Source: Candidatus Falkowbacteria bacterium RIFOXYC2_FULL_36_12
GTDB taxonomy: Bacteria > Patescibacteriota > Patescibacteriia > UBA11705
DNA: 64,000 nucleotides
Assembly: GCA_001778235.1 (NCBI GenBank)
Contig: MFGJ01000008.1
Location: 129,148-193,147 of the forward strand
Direction of reading: 5' to 3'
The notes below the pieces were generated by a model. That model was not told where the DNA came from, searched no databases, and saw only the letters and a program-made list of their open reading frames with translations. Position 1 is the first letter of the stretch. The number at the start of each line of letters is the position of its first letter. Made by a program: the position numbers and the translations under genes. Of this stretch, positions 105 through 48,330 are shown one piece after another.

Positions 105-1853
105 TTACATTTCTTTTATAGCTTCTATATTAAGCAATTCTAAACCCTTTAGCAAGACCTGACTAACTTTCTTTAATAACATTAATCTTGCTTGTTTAAC
201 ATCGTTTTCAGCTTTCAATACTTGATGTTTATGATAAAACCCATTAAATTTCTGGGCTAACTCAATTAAATAGGTACACAAATATGAACCTTGATATTTT
301 TCAGCCGATACCACAATACTTTCCTCAAACAAACTTAGATGCTTTATCAAACTTTGTTCTTCAACTTCCTTCAAAACTGTAAAATCAATATTTTCTTTGT
401 TTTTTTCTTTTTTCAAAATTGAATTTATGCGCGCAACTGTATAAAGTAAATAAGGACCAGTCGAACCCTCAATGGACATAGCCTTTTCCATATCAAAAAC
501 AATTACAGTATTATTCTCGTATTTCAGCATCCAGAATTTCAAGGCAGCTAAAGCAATTTTTTCTGCCGTTGAATCAATTTTCTTAACCGACCAATCAGAG
601 TGTCTCTGCGCAGTCTCATTTATCAGCCTCTTCTTCATTTCTCCAAACAATGACATAAAAGTTATTACATTCCCTTTTCTTGAGGCCATAGCTCCATCAG
701 GCAATGTTACAAAATCATATGCAACATGAATTTTTTCTTTATCTTCATATCCCAATAGATCCAACAATTTAAAAATTTGTTTCATGTACAAACTTTGCCT
801 ATTATCAACCAGATAAATCGATTTATCAATTCCAAATTCATCAAATTTCTTTTTCCCGAGTGGTAAATCTTTTGTCCCGTAGAGAACATTCCCATCAGAT
901 TTAATCAAAACCAATACATCCAGACCAAATTTTTTCAACTCTGCGATTATTGCCCCTTCACTCTCTTTTATTTCAGGGATTGTTTTATTTTTTACAATTT
1001 CATTAATCAATTTCTTGCCTTCAATTTCCTCTTCACTCTCAAAAAACCATTGATCAAATTTTACACCAAGTAAATCATATACAACCTGAAACCCATCCAT
1101 ACTCCACTCTTTTGTTTGTTGCCATAGCTTAACCATATCACTATCCTGATTCTCCAATTTTCTCTGAATTTCAGAAACTTCCTGACTCAACTCTGGATTT
1201 TCTTCTAATTTTTGGACCGCTTCAGCATACATTTGACCAAGAAACTCACCTTTACTTTTATTTTCAACAAGGTAATTTCCACTAGGAAACTTTTTTTGTA
1301 AAAACCACAAACATTTTGCCACATGCACTCCAGCATCACCAATATAGTTGGCTGCTATCACCTCATTACCTTGATATCGCAAAATATTAACCAGTGATGA
1401 CCCAAGGCAAGCATTTCGTAAATGTCCCACATGAAATTCCTTATGTGTATTTGGTTGTGAATACTCAACCATAACTTTACTCGCTATTCTCACTTTACTC
1501 GCTGTACTCGCTGTACTCGCTGTACTCACTTTTCCCGCTTTCAACACACTTTCATTCCATTTCCCGAGTTTTAACTGAAAATTCAAGTATGGCCCAGTAG
1601 CCTCAACCCTTTCCCAAAGATTACCTTTAATTTGAGTCAATTTTTTACTTAATTCACTGGCAAACTGTGCAGGATTTTGTTTTTTTTCTTTTGCTAGCTG
1701 AAAAACTGGCAAAGCAAATTGCCCCAATTCAATTTTTGGTGGATTAGCCAAAATATTTTCTTCAAACTCCGTATTCAAAATTTTATTTATCTCTTCAACC
1801 AATTGTTTTTTTATACCTTTCATATATTTATTATTAAAGTCACAATTCATCAC
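105..1853 (-). CDS. argS: arginyl-tRNA synthetase
   Basis: Class I HIGH motif (HVGHLRN) and overall ArgRS layout. The track start is GTG; the true ATG may be 1850 or 1823. Confidence 0.9.
   Translation of the reverse strand: MMNCDFNNKYMKGIKKQLVEEINKILNTEFEENILANPPKIELGQFALPVFQLAKEKKQNPAQFASELSKKLTQIKGNLWERVEATGPYLNFQLKLGKWNESVLKAGKVSTASTASTASKVRIASKVMVEYSQPNTHKEFHVGHLRNACLGSSLVNILRYQGNEVIAANYIGDAGVHVAKCLWFLQKKFPSGNYLVENKSKGEFLGQMYAEAVQKLEENPELSQEVSEIQRKLENQDSDMVKLWQQTKEWSMDGFQVVYDLLGVKFDQWFFESEEEIEGKKLINEIVKNKTIPEIKESEGAIIAELKKFGLDVLVLIKSDGNVLYGTKDLPLGKKKFDEFGIDKSIYLVDNRQSLYMKQIFKLLDLLGYEDKEKIHVAYDFVTLPDGAMASRKGNVITFMSLFGEMKKRLINETAQRHSDWSVKKIDSTAEKIALAALKFWMLKYENNTVIVFDMEKAMSIEGSTGPYLLYTVARINSILKKEKNKENIDFTVLKEVEEQSLIKHLSLFEESIVVSAEKYQGSYLCTYLIELAQKFNGFYHKHQVLKAENDVKQARLMLLKKVSQVLLKGLELLNIEAIKEM
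1477..1539. repeat. 9-bp periodic tandem repeat tract (TTACTCGCT/GTACTCGCT, about 7 units) in frame inside argS
   Basis: Direct reading: ...tttactcgct attctcact ttactcgct gtactcgct gtactcgct gtactcact tttcccgct. It is translated on the minus strand as ...STASTASTAS... Confidence 0.7.
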
Positions 1854-1872
1854 TAATTCTCAATCTTCATCA

Positions 1873-2370
1873 TTACTTCCTATATCTCAACCGATCCAGC
1901 TTCTCAATAATATTTTCTTCTTTTTGTAAAATCTGATGTTGTTGTTGCAGAATTTTATCTTCAATCTTTTGAGTTTCTCTGATTTTATCAAGGAAAACAT
2001 CTCCTTCCTTATCAAAATCTTGTTTTACGCTACGAAAATACGGACGCATAAAAAGCGAACTAATCAAGATTAATACTTGCACCACAAAAATTATAAATAA
2101 TATCACTACCAAACTAAATGTCACGAGAGAAATCATTCTTCCTACCAAAGTAATTGCTGACAAATCATCATTACCAAATTTAAAAATATTTTCCACAATA
2201 CGGAATGAATCATTTAGATCGCTGACTTCTGGGTTAATTTGATTTTCAACAATAAACAACAAAAAATTTGCTGATATTAATATAATAACAAAAAACAATC
2301 CCAAAAAACCCAATATCAACCATGATTTTCTTCTTTTTAATTTAGCCTCCATATTTTTTCCTATTGGCAC
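1873..2370 (-). CDS. hypothetical membrane protein (2 predicted TM helices, C-terminal coiled coil)
   Basis: Long hydrophobic stretches, then a charged heptad-like tail. It is wedged between tyrS and argS. Confidence 0.55.
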   Translation of the reverse strand: MPIGKNMEAKLKRRKSWLILGFLGLFFVIILISANFLLFIVENQINPEVSDLNDSFRIVENIFKFGNDDLSAITLVGRMISLVTFSLVVILFIIFVVQVLILISSLFMRPYFRSVKQDFDKEGDVFLDKIRETQKIEDKILQQQHQILQKEENIIEKLDRLRYRK

Positions 2371-2407
2371 TCTGAACCTACAACAAAGGTTTCAGGGGAT
2401 TTATAAA

Positions 2408-3601
2408 CTATTTTATTTTTACAAAATGCCTCTTACCCTTTTGGACAACATCACCGCTTTTAACTTCAAACTCAACCGAATTTATAATTTCATCATTTAT
2501 TTTAACTGCTTTTTGCTCTACCATTCTCTTTGCTTCAGATTTTGAAATTACAAGGCCTGTCTCAATCAAAACATCTACAATATTAAAATTTGAAACTGTT
2601 TTTTCCTCAATTTCATCTGGCCGTTCCTTCTTCTGAAACATTTGGACAAAATTTTCTTCAGCCTTATCAGCCCTATCTTCATCAAAATAAAACTCAACAA
2701 TTTCCTTGGCTAACTCAACTTTCAAATCTCTTGGATTTTCACCTTGTTTCAATCTTTCTTCAAATAATTTTAATTTAACCGATTCAACCATTGTACAAAG
2801 TTCAAACCCCGGAATAATCATGCCATCTGTCCAGCTCATTACCTTGCCAAACATATCATCAGGACTATCAGCCAAAGTAATCATGTTTCCTTCAGATTTT
2901 CCCATTTTTATTCCTGATGGATCTGTCAATAATTTATTAGTCAAAACAAATTTTTCCTTCATTCCAAGCGATTTCATCAAATCCCGACCAGCAAGCATAT
3001 TAAAAGTCTGATCATTACCACCGACTTCACCATCAACATCCATTGCAACTGAATCATAACCTTGCATCAGCGGATACAAAAATTCATGTAAACTAATCGG
3101 TTTACCCTCTTTCATTCTTTTCTGGTACATATCCCTCTCAAGAAACTGCTGGACCGTAAAATTTGAAGCCAAATCAATCACCTGCCGAAAATCAAGTTTA
3201 TCTAACCATTTATGATTAAACTTTATTTCAACTTTATTCTTACCAGTGAAATCAAGTATTTTTTCAGCTTGTTTTTTATAATTTTTAGCATTTATCAATA
3301 CTTGTTCTCGAGTCAAAGGCTTTCTAGTTGCAGATTTGTCAGTCGGGTCACCAATCATTGCAGTAAAACTACCAATTAAAATTATAACCTGATGCCCAAG
3401 CTGTTGAAACTCGCGAAGCTTCATAAAATTTATCGCGTGTCCCAAATGCAAATCAGTTCCGGTCGGGTCAATACCTAAATATAGAGTTAATCTTTGCCCA
3501 GACTTTAATCTTTTCTCTAAAAATTCTCTGCTCGGATAAATATTCTGCACGCCTCGAGTTAATAACTTTTCTATTTTCTGGGAATCTGTATCAATTTTCA
3601 T
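2408..3601 (-). CDS. tyrS: tyrosyl-tRNA synthetase
   Basis: HLGH (HIGH) and KMGKS (KMSKS) motifs with a C-terminal S4-like domain. The ATG at 3601 was verified. Confidence 0.9.
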   Translation of the reverse strand: MKIDTDSQKIEKLLTRGVQNIYPSREFLEKRLKSGQRLTLYLGIDPTGTDLHLGHAINFMKLREFQQLGHQVIILIGSFTAMIGDPTDKSATRKPLTREQVLINAKNYKKQAEKILDFTGKNKVEIKFNHKWLDKLDFRQVIDLASNFTVQQFLERDMYQKRMKEGKPISLHEFLYPLMQGYDSVAMDVDGEVGGNDQTFNMLAGRDLMKSLGMKEKFVLTNKLLTDPSGIKMGKSEGNMITLADSPDDMFGKVMSWTDGMIIPGFELCTMVESVKLKLFEERLKQGENPRDLKVELAKEIVEFYFDEDRADKAEENFVQMFQKKERPDEIEEKTVSNFNIVDVLIETGLVISKSEAKRMVEQKAVKINDEIINSVEFEVKSGDVVQKGKRHFVKIK

Positions 3602-3612
3602 ATAATTTATTT

Positions 3613-6600
3613 TTATTCTAATTCTTCTAATTGATTTTGTAATTTTTCTATCTTTTCTTTTGCTTCATTAAATTTCCTTTGTTCTTCAGCCACCACCAGT
3701 TCAGGAGCATTTTTCATAAATTCTTCATTTCCCAATTTTTTCTCCAAACCTAATACATATTTTTTACTGTTATCAATCTCACTCTTCAGTCGTTCAATTT
3801 CCTTATCAATATCAAGCAATTCAGCCAAAGGCAAATAAATTTCCACATCTGAAACAATCGCGGTCGCAGATTTCTCTGGTTTTTCAATTACCAGTTCAAT
3901 TTTTTCTAAACGGGCTAAGCTCATGATTATGCCAAATTGACTTTGCAATCTCTCTCCAGCTTTTATTTGAATCTTTATTTTTTTCGCCGGATCAATTTTG
4001 TATTCAGAACGCATATTTCTTATTTTCCCAATCACAACCTGCAGTTGTTCAAACTCTTTCACTCCCTCTTTATCAATCATTTTCTTATCAAATTGTGGAA
4101 ATTTACTTACCATCAACTCTTGTTCTGAACCTAAATTTTGCCAAATTGCTTCAGTCACAAAAGGCATGAACGGATGCCACATTTTGAGCAAATTTTTCAA
4201 TATATGAATCAAAACCACATCTTTGTCATTTTCAACCTTAGCAATTTCCAAATACCAATCAGCCAAATCATTCCAAGTAAATTCTTTTAATAAATCTCCC
4301 GCACCTGAAAAATTATACTCATCAAGCATTTTTGTTACATCCTGAATCAAAGTATTAAATTTTGACAATATCCATCTATCACTCAAACTAACATTTTTAT
4401 TCAATTCAAATTTTGAGTCTCTTTTTTCAGGATTCAATGTCATCAAAATATACCTAGAAATATTCCAAAGTTTATTAACAAAATTTCTATATCCTTCAAT
4501 TTTTTCATCATAAAGTCTAATATCATTACCAGCCGTATTACCAATAAGCAAACTCAATCTTACCGCATCAAATCCATACTTATCTCCAGCCTGAAGCGGA
4601 TCAATTGCTGTTTCAGGTTTTGATTTTGACATTTTATCTCCATTTTTATCTCGAACCAATCCGTGCAAATACACATTTTCAAATGGAACCTCTCCCTTTA
4701 CATAGGTTGTCATCAAAATCATTCTAGCCACCCAGAAAAATAAAATATCATAACCAGTCTCCATCACAGTTGTTGGATGAAATCTTTTCATGTCTTTACC
4801 CTCAAATTTTTTCCCATTCCAATCTTCGGGCAACAAAGTTGAAAAAGTCCAAAGACCTGAACTGAACCAAGTATCTAGAGTATCTGAATCCTGATAAATA
4901 TTTTCCAATCCATTCGGAGACTCTACATTGGTTAATTTTATTTTTATATTTTCACCTGTTTCAGGATAACCAAGTTTAAAAATTTCTTCATCAGTTAAAT
5001 TTTTGTGCATCCCTTGAGCCATTCTAAGCACATCTCCATGGCTAACAACCAACACCTTTTTCCCTGAATATTTTTTCAATATATCTGTTAAACAACTGAA
5101 AACTCGCTTTTTTTGGTGCAGAAAAGATTCAATTCCCTTTGGGCTATCATTTCTCCAAGCTTCAAAATCAGCTTCGCGAAAATGGACAAAATCTCCTACC
5201 GACTTGCCTTCAAACTCACCAACACCCACTTCCCTCAATCTTTCATCAAATATTACTTTTAATTTTAATTCTTTATTTAATATTCCAACTGTTTCTTTTG
5301 TCCGACTAAAATCAGAAGCATAAATAATATCAAACTTTTCATTTTTTAATTTTTCAGCCATTATTTTAATTTGCTTCTTACCTGTTCCAGTCAAACCATT
5401 TTCCAGATTATCAATATCTGAACTCAAAACTCCTTTTTCATTTGTCTTAGCTTCTCCATGTCTCTGCAAAACAATTTCAGTCGGCTTGGCATCAGAAATA
5501 ATCGGCTGTTTTAAATCCTTGTCATACCAAACAGGAATTTGGTGTCCAAACCAAATCTGACGGGAAATACACCAATTATGTAAATTTTCCATCCAATGAA
5601 AATAAACCTTTTCAAATCTTTCTGGAATTATATTAATTTCTTTGTCTTTTACTACCTTGATTGCCACTTGTTTCAAGCTTGCTCCATTACTGAAATATTT
5701 ATTACCTTTTTTTGTGATTTTTTTATTGACATCAATAAACCATTGATCAGAAATTAATGGCTCAATCACTGTTTTACATCTATAACAGACAGATATTTTA
5801 TTATCATAATCATCATCAATCTTCTCAATCAACCCCATAGCCTTCATATCCTTTACTATTGATTCTCTCGCTTCCAAACTTGTCATCCCAACATATTTCC
5901 CACAATTAGCCATCATCCGACCATCTTCATCAATAATTTGCTTGATAGGTAATTCATTTCGCTCGGCAATCTCATAATCAACCAAACTATGCGCTGGAGT
6001 CACTTTTACCGCTCCTGTTCCGAATTCTGGGTCTACAGCCTCATCTGCAACTACAGTTATCTCAAACTCACCCAAAACACCTGGGATCATATACTTTTTA
6101 CCAATCATCGATTTATACCTTTTATCCTTTGGATTTACCGCTACGGCTGTATCACCAAGTTTTGTTTCTGGTCTAGTTGTTGCCAAAACAAACGGACCAT
6201 ATTTAAGCCAATACAACTTACTTTTAGTTTCTTTATATTCTATTTCATCATCTGCCAGAGTCGTATGACACCGCGGACACCAATTTACAATCCTATTGCC
6301 CCTGATTACAAGACCATCATCATACATCATTTTGAAAACTTTTCGCACCGCCATACTACGAACATCATCTAGGGTATATGTTTCTCTACTCCAATCTACA
6401 CTTGAACCCATTTTTCTAGTCTGATTGGTAATTGTTTTCTTGCTCTGACTTACAAAATCCTCAACTTTATTCAAAAAAGCTTCTCTACCTAAATCATGTC
6501 TGGTTTTTCCTTCGTCATTGAATATTTTCTTCTCCACAACATTCTGTGTTGCGATCGCCGCATGATCAAAGCCTGGCAACCAAAGAGTATCAAAACCCTG

Positions 6601-6816
6601 CATTCTTTTGTATCGAATCATCAAATCTTCAATCGCCAACATTGCCGCATGTCCTAAATGCAAAGAACCTGTCACATTTGGTGGTGGCAGTACAATTGAA
6701 AAAGCCTTACCTTTATTATTAATTGTATCAGGATTAAAAAATTTCTTTTCTTCCCAATTATTGTAAATTTTTTCCTCAAAATCTTTTGGGCAATAAGCTT
6801 TTGGCAATTCTTTCAT
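3613..6816 (-). CDS. valS: valyl-tRNA synthetase with an internal histidine-phosphatase (PGAM-like) domain insertion
   Basis: PPPNVTGSLHLGHA, WCISRQIWFGHQIP, DTWFSSGLW and KMSKS motifs are present. The protein is 1067 aa with about 195 extra residues between the PVWY and DTLDTWFSS blocks. Confidence 0.9.
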   Translation of the reverse strand: MKELPKAYCPKDFEEKIYNNWEEKKFFNPDTINNKGKAFSIVLPPPNVTGSLHLGHAAMLAIEDLMIRYKRMQGFDTLWLPGFDHAAIATQNVVEKKIFNDEGKTRHDLGREAFLNKVEDFVSQSKKTITNQTRKMGSSVDWSRETYTLDDVRSMAVRKVFKMMYDDGLVIRGNRIVNWCPRCHTTLADDEIEYKETKSKLYWLKYGPFVLATTRPETKLGDTAVAVNPKDKRYKSMIGKKYMIPGVLGEFEITVVADEAVDPEFGTGAVKVTPAHSLVDYEIAERNELPIKQIIDEDGRMMANCGKYVGMTSLEARESIVKDMKAMGLIEKIDDDYDNKISVCYRCKTVIEPLISDQWFIDVNKKITKKGNKYFSNGASLKQVAIKVVKDKEINIIPERFEKVYFHWMENLHNWCISRQIWFGHQIPVWYDKDLKQPIISDAKPTEIVLQRHGEAKTNEKGVLSSDIDNLENGLTGTGKKQIKIMAEKLKNEKFDIIYASDFSRTKETVGILNKELKLKVIFDERLREVGVGEFEGKSVGDFVHFREADFEAWRNDSPKGIESFLHQKKRVFSCLTDILKKYSGKKVLVVSHGDVLRMAQGMHKNLTDEEIFKLGYPETGENIKIKLTNVESPNGLENIYQDSDTLDTWFSSGLWTFSTLLPEDWNGKKFEGKDMKRFHPTTVMETGYDILFFWVARMILMTTYVKGEVPFENVYLHGLVRDKNGDKMSKSKPETAIDPLQAGDKYGFDAVRLSLLIGNTAGNDIRLYDEKIEGYRNFVNKLWNISRYILMTLNPEKRDSKFELNKNVSLSDRWILSKFNTLIQDVTKMLDEYNFSGAGDLLKEFTWNDLADWYLEIAKVENDKDVVLIHILKNLLKMWHPFMPFVTEAIWQNLGSEQELMVSKFPQFDKKMIDKEGVKEFEQLQVVIGKIRNMRSEYKIDPAKKIKIQIKAGERLQSQFGIIMSLARLEKIELVIEKPEKSATAIVSDVEIYLPLAELLDIDKEIERLKSEIDNSKKYVLGLEKKLGNEEFMKNAPELVVAEEQRKFNEAKEKIEKLQNQLEELE

Positions 6817-8348: not shown

Positions 8349-8425
8349 GGGCCTGTAGCTCAGTTGGTTAGAGCACCACTCTTATAAAGTGGGGGTCATG
8401 GGTTCAAGTCCCATCAGGCCTACCA
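8349..8425 (+). tRNA. tRNA-Ile, anticodon UAU
   Basis: Cloverleaf folded by hand: 7-bp acceptor stem, anticodon stem ccact/agtgg, loop cttataa, TTCAAGT T-loop, 3' CCA encoded. Close to E. coli tRNA-Ile except for the anticodon. Confidence 0.8.
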
Positions 8426-8426
8426 T

Positions 8427-8503
8427 GGGCAATTAGCTCAGTTGGTTAGAGCGCATCATTGACGTTGATGAGGTCAGAAGTTCGACTCTTCTATTGCCCA
8501 CCA
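8427..8503 (+). tRNA. tRNA-Val, anticodon GAC
   Basis: Acceptor gggcaat/attgccc, anticodon loop ttGACgt, T-arm agaag-ttcgact-cttct, encoded CCA. Confidence 0.85.
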
Positions 8504-29689: not shown

Positions 29690-30331
29690 TCAGAAGATTA
29701 AACTGTAGACAAATTCAATTATCGCATTAAAAAAATATCCAAAAATATTTAATCCGACAACATTATCTAAAATTAGCAAAATTAAGAGTAAAATAGGCCC
29801 TCGAGTCTCCAAAAAGCTCCTAAAATTTCTAAATCTCTCACCATCTAGTATTGAGAATAGAACCTTTGAGCCATCAAGCGGAGGAATTGGTATTAAATTA
29901 AAAAGCATTAAAATAACATTCAAAATGACAAAAATATTCAAAAATTGAAATAATAAATTTTCTGGAGGTAAAATATTCATCCCAGCAATTATTTTCAAAA
30001 CAATACCCGAGAATATCGCCAATAATAAATTTGACGCTGGACCTGCAAGCGCAACCAAAGCCGGCCCCCATTTCTGGTATTTCAAATTATATGGATTGTA
30101 TGGCACTGGCTTTCCCCAGCCAAAACCAACAAGTAGCAACATCAAAAAACCCACTCCACTTACATGAGATATTGGGTTTAAAGTTAATCGTCCCAATGAT
30201 TTTGCTGTATCATCACCCATCAAAGCGCTGGCTAAAGCATGAGAAAACTCATGTACAGACAAAACAATTAAAATTGCCACCACCCAAGCAATGAAAATCA
30301 TCGGGTCTGAAAGCAATGTTCCTAATATCAT
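29690..30331 (-). CDS. M50-family (site-2 protease-like) membrane zinc metalloprotease
   Basis: HEFSHA (HExxH) in a TM helix, multiple TM segments, about 213 aa. Confidence 0.7.
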   Translation of the reverse strand: MILGTLLSDPMIFIAWVVAILIVLSVHEFSHALASALMGDDTAKSLGRLTLNPISHVSGVGFLMLLLVGFGWGKPVPYNPYNLKYQKWGPALVALAGPASNLLLAIFSGIVLKIIAGMNILPPENLLFQFLNIFVILNVILMLFNLIPIPPLDGSKVLFSILDGERFRNFRSFLETRGPILLLILLILDNVVGLNIFGYFFNAIIEFVYSLIF

Positions 30332-30370
30332 AAGTACTTTTTATTATTTATATTTCTGGGTTTATCTCTC

Positions 30371-30461
30371 TTACCTTGCTTTACTTGCTGTACTCGCTGT
30401 ACTCGCTGTACTCGCTGTACTCGCTGTACTCGCTGTACTCGCTGTTCCCACTTTTCCCACC
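30371..30461. repeat. Intergenic 9-bp tandem repeat tract (6 perfect GTACTCGCT units flanked by degenerate units)
   Basis: Direct reading of 30390..30443 with degenerate flanks ttaccttgct, ttacttgct and gttcccact, tttcccacc. Same family as the argS tract. Confidence 0.8.
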
Positions 30462-30534
30462 AATCATACACTACTTGATTTATTTATTCAAATATGCTAT
30501 TCTATTGTTACTTGATGAATAACTTGAAAAAACT

Positions 30535-30711
30535 ATGTCAAAGTATTGTGATTTGTGTGGACGAGGACCTGTTTCTTCACAAAGTTCTTCACACGCTAAC
30601 AACAAAACAAAGCGCACTCTTAATATCAATCTTCAAACAAAAAAAATTGATGGTACCAAGGTAAAAGCTTGCACCAAATGCATGAAAACCTTGAAAAAAG
30701 CAGTTGCGTAA
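30535..30711 (+). CDS. rpmB: 50S ribosomal protein L28 (zinc-ribbon form), absent from the ORF track
   Basis: Translation MSKYCDLCGRGPVSSQSSSHANNKTKRTLNINLQTKKIDGTKVKACTKCMKTLKKAVA matches the L28 signature (CxxCG+xP...SHAxNxTKR...NL) and has a second CxxC. Confidence 0.8.
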   Translation: MSKYCDLCGRGPVSSQSSSHANNKTKRTLNINLQTKKIDGTKVKACTKCMKTLKKAVA

Positions 30712-30765: not shown

Positions 30766-31158
30766 TCAAATTTGTTCTATAGGTATTCCTTCAAAAATCC
30801 TCTGCAGAATAACCCCAAGTGGCAAGTTATCATCATAATGATGAACAACCCGAATCAAAGCTTCATCTTGTTCAAAATCACTTTGACTCAATTCACCTTT
30901 TGCAACTCTGAAAACCCAACCAGGAAAAGGAATTACTGCTACCCAAATACTTTTTCCAGAACACTTATTCCTCCCAAAATGCAATTCAGCTATAGCTGGA
31001 GAAAATTCAAACGGTTTACCACCAATAAACATATGAAACAAATTAGCGGACCTGAATGCTTCAACCGGAACATCTGAACGAAAAATAAAATATTTTGCAA
31101 ATTTTGGAAATTCTTTATGACCATTAATAATTACATAACTTACAATTTGATCACTCAT
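30766..31158 (-). CDS. hypothetical protein (start probably the ATG at 31158)
   Basis: Its start overlaps the stop of the upstream gene by 1 nt (ATGAGTGA). No recognised motif. Confidence 0.4.
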   Translation of the reverse strand: MSDQIVSYVIINGHKEFPKFAKYFIFRSDVPVEAFRSANLFHMFIGGKPFEFSPAIAELHFGRNKCSGKSIWVAVIPFPGWVFRVAKGELSQSDFEQDEALIRVVHHYDDNLPLGVILQRIFEGIPIEQI

Positions 31159-31567
31159 CACGCATATCTCCTTTTTCCTTCCCACAGCCATTTCTTAACC
31201 ATCGCAGATACAAATCATCAATAAAAGCAACCATTCTCTTTTCCGTATCCCTTGCGTCCTCGTTATCATCATACTTAAACTCTTCACACCACCTAAGATT
31301 CTGTAAAGTTACCCAGATATCAAAATCAAGAGAACTAAATTCACTATGTTTATCCACGACAAGAACAATCTCAAACTTATCTCCCAACCAATATTCAGTT
31401 TGCGTTTTTTGCCAATCACTTACCTGATATCGATATGAACCTTGCCTAAGGACCAAAGACTTCATTTTAAAAGCAAACACAGGAATTTTTCTAATAATAA
31501 CAAAACCTCTTGGCTTTTTTTCATTATCCAAACATCTTACAAAAATAACAACTGGTACCGTTTGCAT
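31151..31567 (-). CDS. hypothetical protein
   Basis: 138-aa ORF translationally coupled to the following gene. Confidence 0.45.
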   Translation of the reverse strand: MQTVPVVIFVRCLDNEKKPRGFVIIRKIPVFAFKMKSLVLRQGSYRYQVSDWQKTQTEYWLGDKFEIVLVVDKHSEFSSLDFDIWVTLQNLRWCEEFKYDDNEDARDTEKRMVAFIDDLYLRWLRNGCGKEKGDMRDE

Positions 31568-35362: not shown

Positions 35363-37915
35363 TTAAATAATTTTTGCGTTTGGATAATTTTTACTTAAAT
35401 CTTCTCTTTGTTTTATTGACAAATTCTTACAATAAATTTTCCCCTGGAAAGCAACCGGCAGTTTCAAACCTTCAGCCGTCTTTAATCCTGACAAATCAAT
35501 ATCACCGCCAATGTTCTCGGGCAGTTTCAAACCATCAGCTGTCGTTAATCCTGACAACACAAGATCCCCACCAATGCTCTCGGGCAATTTCAATCCTTCA
35601 GCTGTCGTTAATCCTGACAACACAAAATCCCCACCAATGCTCTCGGGCAGTTTCAAGCCTTCGACTGTCATTAATCCGTTCAAAAAAAGATCACTGCCAA
35701 TGCTCTCGGGCAATTTCAATCCTTCAGCTGTCGTTAATCCTGACAAATAAAGCTTACCGCCAATACTCTCGGGCAGTTTCAAGCCTTCAGCTGTCGTTAA
35801 TCCTGACAACTCAAGATCCCTGCCAATGTTCTCGGGCAGTTTCAAGCCTTTAGCCGTCGTTAATCCTGACAAATCAAGATCCCTGCCAATGTTCTCGGGC
35901 AGATTCAAGCCTTTAGCCGTCGTTAATTTCATCAAAGACAAAGAGCCACCAATAATCTCGGGCAATTTCAATCCTTCAGCTGTTGTTAAATCCTGCAACT
36001 CAAGATTACCACCAATACACTCTGGCATTATCAATCCTTTAGCCGTCGTTAATCCTGATAAATTAAGAAGTCCGCCAATGCTCTCGGGTAGTTTCAAACC
36101 ATCAGCCGTCTTTAATCCACGCAATGCAAGAGAGCCACCAATACTCTTGGGCAGTTCCAAGCCTTTAGCGGTTGTTAATCCTGACAAATAAAGATTACCG
36201 CCAATACTCTCGGGTAGTTTCAAGCCTTCAGCTGTCTCTAATCCTGACAAATAAAGCTTACCGCCAATACTCTCGGGCAGATTCAAGCCTTCAGCCGTCG
36301 TTAATCCTGACAAATCAAGATTACCACCAATAATCTTGGGCAATTTCAATCCTTCAGCCGTCGTTAATCCTGACAAATCAATATCCCTGCCAATGTTCTC
36401 GGGCAATTTCAATCCTTCAGCTGTCGTTAATCCTGACAAAGAAAGATTACCATAATGAAATTTAATTTCACCACTCACAGCTTCCTCATTTGTCAAGCTT
36501 ATCTTATCCTTGGGAAAACCTGTCACCACCACCAAATCAGCCCTTATATCCTTTCGGTTACTCTTGATTTCTTCCAAACGCGGATCAGCCTCATAACCAA
36601 ATCCTTTAATTTTACCGTCAAACTCATACAAAAATCTCAAATCACTCTTTGCCAGTTCTTGCCCTTGTCTATTTCTCTCCCAAACATCTGTCAATTGCTC
36701 CATATCTGCAGTCTTCTGCTTGTACTCATCTCCTTCCTTGCCAAATTCATCCATTTTCTTTTCCACCACTGGACCAATATATGGATCCAGATTCTGATCA
36801 GTCGCTATACCTCGGACTTCAGCGATTTTTTCTTTCCCCTCCATGCGTATCGCAATCCTAGGAATCACAGCTTCACCATCTTCATTATAGGAATAATAGA
36901 CATAAAAATCTCCTCCTGCCAACTGTTTTCTGGCCGTCTCAATATCAGCTGTGCACCATTCTAGTGGATAACCCTCAAGGCTTTTTACCAACTCATCCGG
37001 TTTTGATTTCTGCGGGAAAATTTTCCACTCTCCTTTAATTTCCTCCAGTCCTTCAGTCGCGTATTCAGGAATTTCCAGTAAAAATTGTGCGTAAAGTTTG
37101 GCAAAGTTTTCCTTCGATAATAATTTAATAAATTCATTTTCCTTTAATTTCTTACTGTCATTTTTTATTTGCAATTTCAACAATTCTTCCTCTCTTTGTT
37201 CTTTGGGCTTTTGCTTTTCTCTCGCCACCCTTTCTTTTTCTTCCAAATAACCAATCATCACTCCGATTGTTTTTGCCAAGGCCCGAGAGTTCAAGAGTGG
37301 AAAGGTGTTTGTAGTTGAACCAGTTCTTCGCTGAAACTGCGCCTTGACGCTTCCATTTATGTCTTCTTTTTTCACCAACTTGCCCATTTTCAGCATTGAA
37401 GTAAACGCCCAATACTTGGCCCACATCGGATACTGGGCATCGTCTGAAGTCAGGTAATTGAACCAAGTTTCTAAACTTTTCGCTTGGTTGTTTCTCACCA
37501 CCACCAACGACTGCTCCCTCATTTCTACCGGAAAAATATAGTTGACAATCTGCTCATCTGACTCATCTCTGATTACTCTTTTTTCCACCCCATTTTGTTC
37601 CAAATCTCCACCATATCCCTGACGAATCATTATTTCCGCCTGGTTATTCCAATATCCTTGAGGTATGTCATCAAGTGTTAGTGTCACATATCTCCGGTAA
37701 TAATATTGTTTTAGTCGTTCCATCACTTTCGGATCATCTCTGTGCCCCAAGTGGGTTCGCTCCAGCACCTTCATCCAATCCGACAACTTTTCCGCTGGCT
37801 TTTGCGTAGTCTGCTCACCACGCCGTTTTTTCCTATCCTGTTCATGCATCGCCGGATCAGACAAATGAAGCTCTGTATCTTTTTGATGTAAAAATTTTTC
37901 TCCAAAATTTGTCAT
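35363..37915 (-). CDS. large repeat protein: about 480-aa unknown N-terminal domain plus about 22 tandem 20-aa Leu-rich (LRR-like) repeats
   Basis: C-terminal 20-aa repeats, consensus LDLSGLTTAEGLKLPESIGG; no signal peptide seen. The start overlaps the trmH stop (ATGA). Confidence 0.6.
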   Translation of the reverse strand: MTNFGEKFLHQKDTELHLSDPAMHEQDRKKRRGEQTTQKPAEKLSDWMKVLERTHLGHRDDPKVMERLKQYYYRRYVTLTLDDIPQGYWNNQAEIMIRQGYGGDLEQNGVEKRVIRDESDEQIVNYIFPVEMREQSLVVVRNNQAKSLETWFNYLTSDDAQYPMWAKYWAFTSMLKMGKLVKKEDINGSVKAQFQRRTGSTTNTFPLLNSRALAKTIGVMIGYLEEKERVAREKQKPKEQREEELLKLQIKNDSKKLKENEFIKLLSKENFAKLYAQFLLEIPEYATEGLEEIKGEWKIFPQKSKPDELVKSLEGYPLEWCTADIETARKQLAGGDFYVYYSYNEDGEAVIPRIAIRMEGKEKIAEVRGIATDQNLDPYIGPVVEKKMDEFGKEGDEYKQKTADMEQLTDVWERNRQGQELAKSDLRFLYEFDGKIKGFGYEADPRLEEIKSNRKDIRADLVVVTGFPKDKISLTNEEAVSGEIKFHYGNLSLSGLTTAEGLKLPENIGRDIDLSGLTTAEGLKLPKIIGGNLDLSGLTTAEGLNLPESIGGKLYLSGLETAEGLKLPESIGGNLYLSGLTTAKGLELPKSIGGSLALRGLKTADGLKLPESIGGLLNLSGLTTAKGLIMPECIGGNLELQDLTTAEGLKLPEIIGGSLSLMKLTTAKGLNLPENIGRDLDLSGLTTAKGLKLPENIGRDLELSGLTTAEGLKLPESIGGKLYLSGLTTAEGLKLPESIGSDLFLNGLMTVEGLKLPESIGGDFVLSGLTTAEGLKLPESIGGDLVLSGLTTADGLKLPENIGGDIDLSGLKTAEGLKLPVAFQGKIYCKNLSIKQREDLSKNYPNAKII
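35400..36450. repeat. Near-identical 60-bp tandem repeats (coding, within the LRR-like gene)
   Basis: Repeating ...ctctcgggcagtttcaagccttcagctgtcgttaatcctgacaa... units, GC-richer than the surroundings. Confidence 0.8.
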
Positions 37916-47780: not shown

Positions 47781-47931
47781 AATCCACCAACAACAAGTAA
47801 ACAACAACAACAAACCGACTCATAAAAGTGAGCGGTTTTCAGTTTAAATTTTATTCAGTTATAATATAATTATCAATTAAATTTTATCCTTATGCTAAAA
47901 ATTGACTGGACAAATAAAAATTTATTCAACA

Positions 47932-48330
47932 CCACAAACACGATAAGCCTCGGGGCTTGTCTGCCGTAATCTTGATGAAGGCAGGTCTGGGGGGATTCTT
48001 AACATCAAAAAGCACGCCATAGACTTGATCAAGGGTACCACGCAGAGCGTAATCAATCACTTAATCTCAAAAAAACTTGCTTTAACAAAACTTATCACCT
48101 ACTTTATATATTAAATTCCACAAACACGGCAAGCATCGGGTCTTGCCTGCCGTAATCTTGATGAAGGCAGGTCTGGGTGAACAAGCGCGTCATCAAAACC
48201 ACGAACTTGATCAAAACAATTCGCATTTGTTCACCCAGTGGTTTTTGCATACTTTTTGCCATCAAAAAGTATGACGCGAAGCGTAATCAATCACTTATTC
48301 TCAAAATAACTTACTTTAGCAAAACAACAA
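47932..48330 (+). repeat. Two tandem copies (about 186-nt period) of a structured element with conserved 5' and 3' modules and a variable middle
   Basis: Copies start at 47932 and 48118 (ccacaaacacg...). Both carry ctgccgtaatcttgatgaaggcaggtctggg and gcgtaatcaatcactta-tctcaaaa-aactt-cttta-caaaac. Confidence 0.6.

Follow-up and report, generated by a model that had tools for sequence, protein, structure and literature searches.

A 9-bp tandem array lies in frame within argS, the gene for arginyl-tRNA synthetase (ArgRS), in a 64,000-nt stretch of DNA from Candidatus Falkowbacteria bacterium RIFOXYC2_FULL_36_12 (contig MFGJ01000008.1, positions 129,148 to 193,147; hereafter, the window). A paralogous, non-coding array sits 29 kb away, in the spacer upstream of an operon that starts with a site-2 protease gene (M50-rpsL-rpsG-fusA). 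We consider it probable that the two arrays are paralogous copies of a lineage-specific, slippage-driven 9-bp minisatellite that forms an in-frame variable-number tandem repeat (VNTR) in argS. A whole-unit indel and the presence of perfect central units between degenerate edges lead us to infer slippage as the mechanism; the arrays would also be close to neutral. The features of the argS locus are as follows.

105 to 1853, minus strand: open reading frame (ORF) of argS (arginine--tRNA ligase, ArgRS), with a GTG start at 1853
1473 to 1541, minus strand: 9-bp array of argS in codon register, encoding K105-V127
1495 to 1530, minus strand: near-perfect core of the argS array (TTACTCGCT GTACTCGCT GTACTCGCT GTACTCACT on the plus strand)
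1527 to 1536, minus strand: shared edge 10-mer GGGAAAAGTG (cacttttccc on the plus strand), argS copy

Read on the plus strand, the argS units at 1477-1539 are TTACTCGCT ATTCTCACT TTACTCGCT GTACTCGCT GTACTCGCT GTACTCACT TTTCCCGCT. The coding sense of the array is AAAGCGGGA AAAGTGAGT ACAGCGAGT (three times) AAAGTGAGA ATAGCGAGT AAAGTT.., which encodes the peptide KAG-KVS-TAS-TAS-TAS-KVR-IAS-KV (residues 105-127); the minus-strand translation of the tract runs ...LKAGKVSTASTASTASKVRIASKVMVEYSQPNTHKEFHVGHLRN. An earlier note on this DNA had counted about seven repeats of 9 bp at 1477-1539. The count is fair, although near-perfect matches are confined to the central three to four units, with 6 of 9 positions matching in the outer ones. 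Tandem Repeats Finder reports 5.6 copies of period 9 at 1478-1527 (85% matches, score 72). The array ends straight at the conserved strand KVMVEYSQPNTHKEFHVGHLRN, with the first Rossmann strand and the HIGH motif following immediately; the same note had located an STA insert there. It also adjoins the conserved K-V-M codons AAAGTTATG, an ancestral sequence that is already unit-like.

The repeat is confined to the two arrays. The 18-mer GTACTCGCTGTACTCGCT, allowing up to three mismatches, has 10 matches, all within the two tracts, for an expectation of 0.00 derived from dinucleotide-preserving shuffles. Similarly, the exact 9-mer matches eight times, always inside the arrays, against 0.03 matches expected in shuffles. 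Both loci therefore carry head-to-tail units beyond chance, as in a minisatellite.

The product of argS has the domain architecture and HIGH signature of a class I arginyl-tRNA synthetase. Its homologues carry the Arg_tRNA_synt_N (PF03485), tRNA-synt_1d (PF00750) and DALR_1 (PF05746) domains, and the signature reads HVGH at residues 141-144 (all ArgRS residues are numbered here on the 582-aa ORF). The true start is likely the ATG at 1823 (MKGIKKQL..., 572 aa), as in the NCBI entry OGF30954.1. The best match among ArgRS structures in the PDB is 2zue (E 4e-61). The protein is identical to OGF30954.1, OGF34382.1 and OGF45887.1, from the metagenome-assembled genomes RIFOXYA2_FULL_35_8, RIFOXYC2_FULL_36_12 and RIFOXYD2_FULL_35_9, and the best protein matches of the window as a whole are to a groundwater population of Candidatus Falkowbacteria (Patescibacteria/Candidate Phyla Radiation, CPR). 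The window is AT-rich (34% GC), with a strongly negative GC skew.

Several lines of evidence place the origin of the repeat at the DNA level. The units in argS use identical codons, down to synonymous sites, and GCG, which is the rarest of the Ala codons in the window (14%), is used for 5 of the 5 Ala residues of the tract. The lack of synonymous variation together with the rare Ala codon argues for recent DNA amplification rather than long selection. The GC content of the tract is 48-52% versus 34% for the window. Furthermore, the STA repeat is found among 120 ArgRS homologues only in members of the same 90% cluster that are 96-100% identical, and in none of the homologues at or below 63% identity. 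The nearest relatives, P0002 (63%) and P0003 (61%), have unrelated linker sequences, and no 9-nt periodicity was found in the linker DNA of P0002. These sequence comparisons indicate that the repeat arose at the DNA level, recently and specifically in this lineage. The earlier note had likewise read the tract as a DNA repeat rather than a protein feature, to be abandoned if orthologues conserved the STA segment. The identical codons, the non-coding copy of the unit and the absence of the segment from the more distant orthologues all agree with that view.

The array occupies a segment of ArgRS that is variable across the family. We took this linker as the stretch between the GxYxN motif and the first Rossmann strand and, in the 120 homologues, found a length of 23-40 aa, with a median of 32. 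The linker is 35 aa long in the window protein and 29 aa long in each of P0002, P0003 and P0124. As the linker is hypervariable and 35 aa falls within the family range, the repeat replaced or overgrew an existing linker and was not a 63-nt insertion, as had been claimed. The net gain is about 6 aa, not 21. An AlphaFold2 model built with 38 homologues (mean predicted local distance difference test score, pLDDT, 89; predicted template modelling score, pTM, 0.89) drops below a pLDDT of 50 exactly at residues 110-121 (VSTASTASTASK), a loop between helix 96-104, the last of the N-terminal domain, and strand 126-130. In solved ArgRS structures the tract falls in the same poorly aligned inter-domain segment. 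Mapping on structure, which the earlier note had proposed, thus sets the array in a linker that is predicted to be disordered. Of the three sense frames of the unit (TAS, QRV and SEY), the one used, TAS, provides small, linker-friendly residues.

The length of the array varies within the cluster. P0124, a protein of the same cluster from an assembly of run SRR3989339, reads VLK-ASTASTASKVRIASKV and lacks AGKVST, equivalent to 18 nt, two units or 6 aa. The expectation that the tract could vary in length while keeping the frame was therefore correct. P0124 also carries the substitution S223G, which identifies it as a distinct haplotype rather than a truncated copy. The end-points of the deletion appear to fall on an ..AGCG that recurs in units spaced 18 nt from each other, which slipped-strand mispairing would predict.

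An assembly of run SRR3989339 also holds a further argS variant, P0001, in which the C-terminal part of the upstream membrane ORF is fused in frame to ArgRS residue 32. The fusion site corresponds to about 1759-1964 in the window, spanning the 5' end of argS and the upstream ORF (1873 to 2370), and is compatible with a 199-nt deletion between TTGAAGA microhomologies (TCTTCAA on the plus strand, 1759-1765 and 1958-1964). P0001 could be a genuine deletion variant or a chimeric sequence.

The second array and its surroundings comprise the following features.

30372 to 30461, minus strand: paralogous non-coding array, oriented as in argS
30390 to 30443, minus strand: six perfect GTACTCGCT units (54 nt)
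30449 to 30458, minus strand: shared edge 10-mer GGGAAAAGTG, spacer copy
29690 to 30331, minus strand: site-2 protease (Peptidase_M50) gene, the first of the M50-rpsL-rpsG-fusA string
30491 to 30463, minus strand: promoter-like TTGAAT-17-TATGAT from a consensus scan, immediately upstream of the spacer array
30535 to 30711, plus strand: rpmB (ribosomal protein L28), divergent from M50

The minus strand of the spacer array reads TTGGTGGGA AAAGTGGGA (ACAGCGAGT)x6 ACAGCAAGT AAAGCAAGG, for which Tandem Repeats Finder gives 7.6 copies of period 9 at 30378-30445 (96% matches, score 122). The array lies 40 nt upstream of the M50 ATG and is also upstream of rpmB, at least 74 nt from its ATG. On the plus strand, the promoter-like block could be read by eye as TTGATT (30475-30480), 17 nt and TATTCT (30498-30503), directed toward rpmB. 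We compared the spacer of the window with those of three related species whose M50 proteins are 77%, 74% and 69% identical. The four species have in common a promoter-like block of about 45 nt, CATAYTTG..AATCAAGT..TGTATRAT (alignment A4), and their similarity ends right after the -10-like hexamer. From this hexamer to the M50 ATG the leaders are unalignable and measure about 42, 80, 170 and 130 nt. In the window lineage the leader is made up mostly of the array, which is absent from the orthologous spacers of the three relatives; one of them has a small 7-nt repeat in its place. The conserved block is predicted to work as a bidirectional promoter, with the start of transcription placed accordingly only by its position. 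The spacer array lies within a fast-evolving leader that is probably transcribed in the same sense as argS, and its transcript would be a 5' untranslated region (UTR).

A scan of the window at the Rfam gathering thresholds retained only two tRNAs and matched neither array. The array RNA is predicted to fold somewhat better than shuffled sequences (z = -3.4) via GUAC palindromes, and we regard the fold as a by-product of a GTAC-containing repeat. A leader peptide or an upstream ORF was another candidate for the spacer, which holds a 30-aa ORF in the TAS frame and a 47-aa ORF in the QRV frame. Both are unlikely to be genuine, as their start codons are located within the predicted -10 or upstream of it and the relatives conserve neither. 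The 47-aa ORF (30328 to 30471, minus strand) reads through the array and stops at a TGA that overlaps the ATG of M50 (ATGA). The gene calls of one assembly (L014) include this ORF, and it is probably spurious, given that its only start codon is within the predicted -10 region. On the other side of rpmB, two overlapping small ORFs of 141 and 138 aa (30766 to 31191 and 31151 to 31567, minus strand) separate rpmB from an SdiA-regulated/phytase-like gene; in one relative (L030) both are missing at the orthologous position, and rpmB and the SdiA-regulated/phytase-like gene are adjacent. Neither ORF has Pfam or PADLOC matches.

The two arrays are related by descent. They align over 64 nt with 89% identity in blastn (E 3e-15) and are also paired by nhmmer (E 2e-09). 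The edge 10-mer GGGAAAAGTG has only two exact matches in the window, one per array edge, as the earlier note had seen for the unit and cacttttccc in the intergenic tract. This 10-mer deviates from the unit consensus identically at both loci, an argument that the whole array is of common descent. The flanks beyond the arrays are unrelated, and the perfect core units number three in argS and six in the spacer. A shared core and a shared degenerate edge between unrelated flanks indicate that one locus is a short-patch copy of the other, or that both are copies of a third locus. As to the direction of copying, there are points on both sides. Those toward argS as the origin are the contact of its array with the unit-like K-V-M codons and a faint resemblance of SGKNES in P0002 to AGKVST. 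On the other hand, P0124 lacks exactly the GGGAAAAGTG-containing units, which fits conversion from the spacer copy equally well. The linker DNA of P0002 was rejected as a guide to direction, the resemblance of TCGGGCAAAAATGAATCA to GCGGGAAAAGTGAGTACA being too weak to use.

We propose a sequence of events that would account for both loci. The argS copy makes up the whole linker that joins the Add1 domain (N-terminal, tRNA-binding) to the first catalytic Rossmann strand. There, ACA-GCG-AGT in the used frame yields Thr-Ala-Ser, and the array is translated into a tether of small residues that is predicted to be unstructured. ArgRS would tolerate the array because this segment varied beforehand, both in length and in sequence, across the family. 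The second copy occupies the variable leader between the conserved bidirectional promoter-like block and the M50-rpsL-rpsG-fusA operon. One array would have been copied from the other as a short patch, by template switching, ectopic gene conversion or filler-DNA insertion. Afterwards, each array would have grown or shrunk independently in 9-nt steps, always keeping the argS frame, to leave co-occurring strains two units (6 aa) apart.

We searched for further copies in about 84 kb (the window plus 10 kb on each side, L004 and L039), or about 8% of a roughly 1-Mb genome, and found no third copy of the array in them. A search for inverted repeats around both arrays revealed no terminal inverted repeats, and inspection of their flanks by eye revealed no convincing target-site duplication. 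Exact-match scans of collections that exclude the source genome returned only loci in unrelated organisms (30-72% GC) and with other flanks: three for a 27-mer in 185,579 species-representative genomes, 15 for a 22-mer in JGI metagenome contigs and two for the exact pattern in IMG/VR viral contigs. By these contexts, the 9-mer appears to have been amplified independently in unrelated organisms. DnaA boxes, uptake sequences, Chi, KOPS and parS-like sites were ruled out by the confinement of the 9-mer to the two arrays; the 9-mer is also unlike the consensuses of these sites. About 2.4 kb past the right end of the window, beside a ComEC-like competence gene, lies a Y1_Tnp gene (L039 6256-6759; 167 aa; PF01797, E 7e-10) for an IS200-like, possibly REP-associated tyrosine transposase (REP, repetitive extragenic palindromic). 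No link of this gene to the 9-bp arrays was found.

These searches bear on the proposal of the earlier note that the insert is a copy of a dispersed element, which they do not favor. A small non-autonomous mobile or dispersed repeat, similar to MITEs (miniature transposable elements with inverted repeats), REPs or Rickettsia palindromic elements (RPEs), could have inserted in frame in argS and in the M50 leader and have more copies elsewhere. This is unlikely. In its favor, the two copies 29 kb apart share a core and an idiosyncratic edge 10-mer, both sites are lineage-specific novelties relative to species at 63-77% protein identity, the GC content is foreign to the genome and a Y1/IS200-like transposase gene lies nearby; RPEs inserted in frame in housekeeping genes set a precedent (PMC10969869). 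Yet the repeat is a tandem array and not a palindromic unit, it has neither a third copy in the region inspected nor inverted termini or a convincing target-site duplication, and the genome-representative, metagenome and viral scans contain no copies with these flanks. The net change in argS is, moreover, only 6 aa, next to the unit-like ancestral AAAGTTATG. Selection at the protein level for a Thr/Ala/Ser tether that tunes the distance between Add1 and the catalytic core, with the spacer copy as a by-product, is quite unlikely. It would explain why the used frame gives TAS and not QRV or SEY, and why the linker length stays within the family range, but not the lack of synonymous variation and the rare Ala codon, the coexistence of an allele 6 aa shorter or the unrelated linkers of the relatives. 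We give still less credence to a functional cis-element, in which (ACAGCGAGU)n RNA or 9-bp DNA iterons would bind a common factor coupling argS to the ribosomal-protein/EF-G operon or form a centromere-like or nucleoid-protein site. Plasmid partition adaptors typically bind arrays of short tandem iterons, 8-12 bp in length. Both arrays have the same sense in the inferred transcripts, the spacer copy begins at most a few nt from the predicted -10, and the array RNA folds better than shuffled sequences, as noted above. However, the same orientation has a 50% prior, the fold is expected of any GTAC-containing repeat, and there is no Rfam match. Neither site is kept in the nearest relatives, copy number is unequal between loci and between alleles, and the neighboring ORFs, without Pfam or PADLOC matches, offer no candidate binding protein.

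An assembly or binning artefact, such as a chimeric join via the shared repeat, has a negligible chance of being the cause. Short-read metagenome assemblies do break at the spacer array: two Logan contigs (L011 and L012) terminate inside its 54-nt perfect core. However, independent assemblies from ENA, JGI, NCBI and Logan have identical sequence at both loci, which argues that neither array is an artefact; gene order is conserved on both sides, the frame is intact, and the perfect argS core (about 27-35 nt) is presumably shorter than the reads. The slippage-driven minisatellite remains the reading we prefer, and several observations weigh against it. Edge-sharing copies 29 kb apart, both in the sense orientation within transcribed regions, are not predicted by plain in-situ slippage; an extra copying step would be required, by a mechanism that is hypothetical. 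Whole-unit variation in copy number was seen for argS only, in the single sequence P0124, known as a protein; all retrievable assemblies have identical copy numbers at both loci, including eight in which the spacer array does not vary. Further copies could also lie in the part of the genome outside the roughly 84 kb inspected. A more far-reaching possibility, which we consider improbable, is that the module GGGAAAAGTG-(RGWACAGCGAGT)n-AAAG.. is a new, very small tandem-array dispersing element of CPR genomes that spreads copies among transcribed regions, also in frame into genes that are essential, or a shared cis-element acting on the argS mRNA and the M50-rpsL-rpsG-fusA leader.

We also identified other repeats in and near the window. 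A second polymorphic array, about 8.5 kb past the right end of the window and upstream of a CYTH-domain gene, is AT-rich, with a 9-nt sub-period (TA[CG]A[AG]AT[AG]C) and higher-order units of about 59 nt (L039 510-850 versus L040 about 775-850). The higher-order copies number about six in a JGI assembly and one in an ENA assembly of the same population, which fits a lineage prone to tandem-repeat instability. An 850-aa protein (35363 to 37915, minus strand) ends in about 16 tandem leucine-rich-repeat-like units of 21 aa (63 nt), with the unit LSGLTTAEGLKLPESIGGxLx (35457-36451; Tandem Repeats Finder score 1088). Two direct-repeat pairs at 47920-48325 (57-72 nt, 86-88% identical, spaced by 186 and 234 nt) hold hairpin-like segments, have a local GC content of 44% and lack Rfam matches.

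The argS gene is part of a row of three aminoacyl-tRNA synthetase (aaRS) genes (105 to 6816, minus strand) in the order ValRS, TyrRS, a small membrane ORF and ArgRS. The relative carrying P0002 keeps the gene order at least for the membrane ORF, argS, bactofilin and DAGK. The ValRS gene (3613 to 6816, minus strand; 1067 aa) contains a complete histidine-phosphatase domain at residues 448-617 (PF00300 His_Phos_1, E 2.9e-34, with an RHGE motif) that splits the halves of the class I catalytic domain. This insertion is far larger, and more unusual for an aaRS, than the ArgRS repeat. Adjacent genes for tRNA-Ile(UAU) and tRNA-Val(GAC) are located at 8349-8503 on the plus strand. A tRNA-Ile with a UAU anticodon is uncommon in bacteria and may be linked to AUA decoding in this lineage.

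The arrays show that, in a streamlined CPR genome, even a core enzyme of translation can harbor a DNA repeat that is hypermutable and polymorphic in length, if the repeat falls in a disordered linker that already varies. They also document how a repeat was copied as a short patch between coding and non-coding DNA. Both tracts are natural strain markers for the Falkowbacteria population of the Rifle groundwater, and they are a cause of assembly breaks. The current view of ArgRS and of bacterial tandem repeats is otherwise unchallenged. Literature searches on tandem repeats, whether of CPR genomes or of essential genes, returned nothing specific.

Among known systems, RPEs of Rickettsia and other intragenic MITEs occur between genes and in frame in housekeeping genes, at surface-exposed positions that protein function can accommodate; RPEs are single palindromes of about 100-150 bp that form ten families, with copies in the dozens (PMC10969869). 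The repeat described here is, in contrast, a 9-bp tandem array with two known copies and no inverted termini, and its likeness to RPEs is functional only. Simple-sequence contingency loci resemble these arrays as tandem tracts of high mutability, located near promoters and within coding regions. However, a 9-nt unit never shifts the frame, and the spacer array is downstream of the predicted -10 rather than between the -35 and -10; a phase-variable on/off switch is therefore not expected. The low-complexity inserts of Plasmodium aaRSs are Asn/Lys expansions driven by the genome-wide AT content. They resemble the argS array as disordered, simple segments tolerated in surface loops of essential aaRSs, but the unit in argS is GC-richer than its AT-rich genome and has a traceable DNA paralogue. 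Coding VNTRs such as the 12-bp units of Bacillus anthracis vrrA and the 18-bp Ser-Asp repeats of staphylococci share with the argS array the head-to-tail units in multiples of 3, copy-number differences between strains, a low-complexity peptide and an attribution to slipped-strand mispairing. Unlike them, the array has as its host an essential aaRS of an uncultured CPR bacterium, makes up the whole interdomain linker before the HIGH motif and is matched, 29 kb away, by a homologous non-coding array that has the same degenerate edge. Of the known kinds, the ordinary coding minisatellite comes closest.

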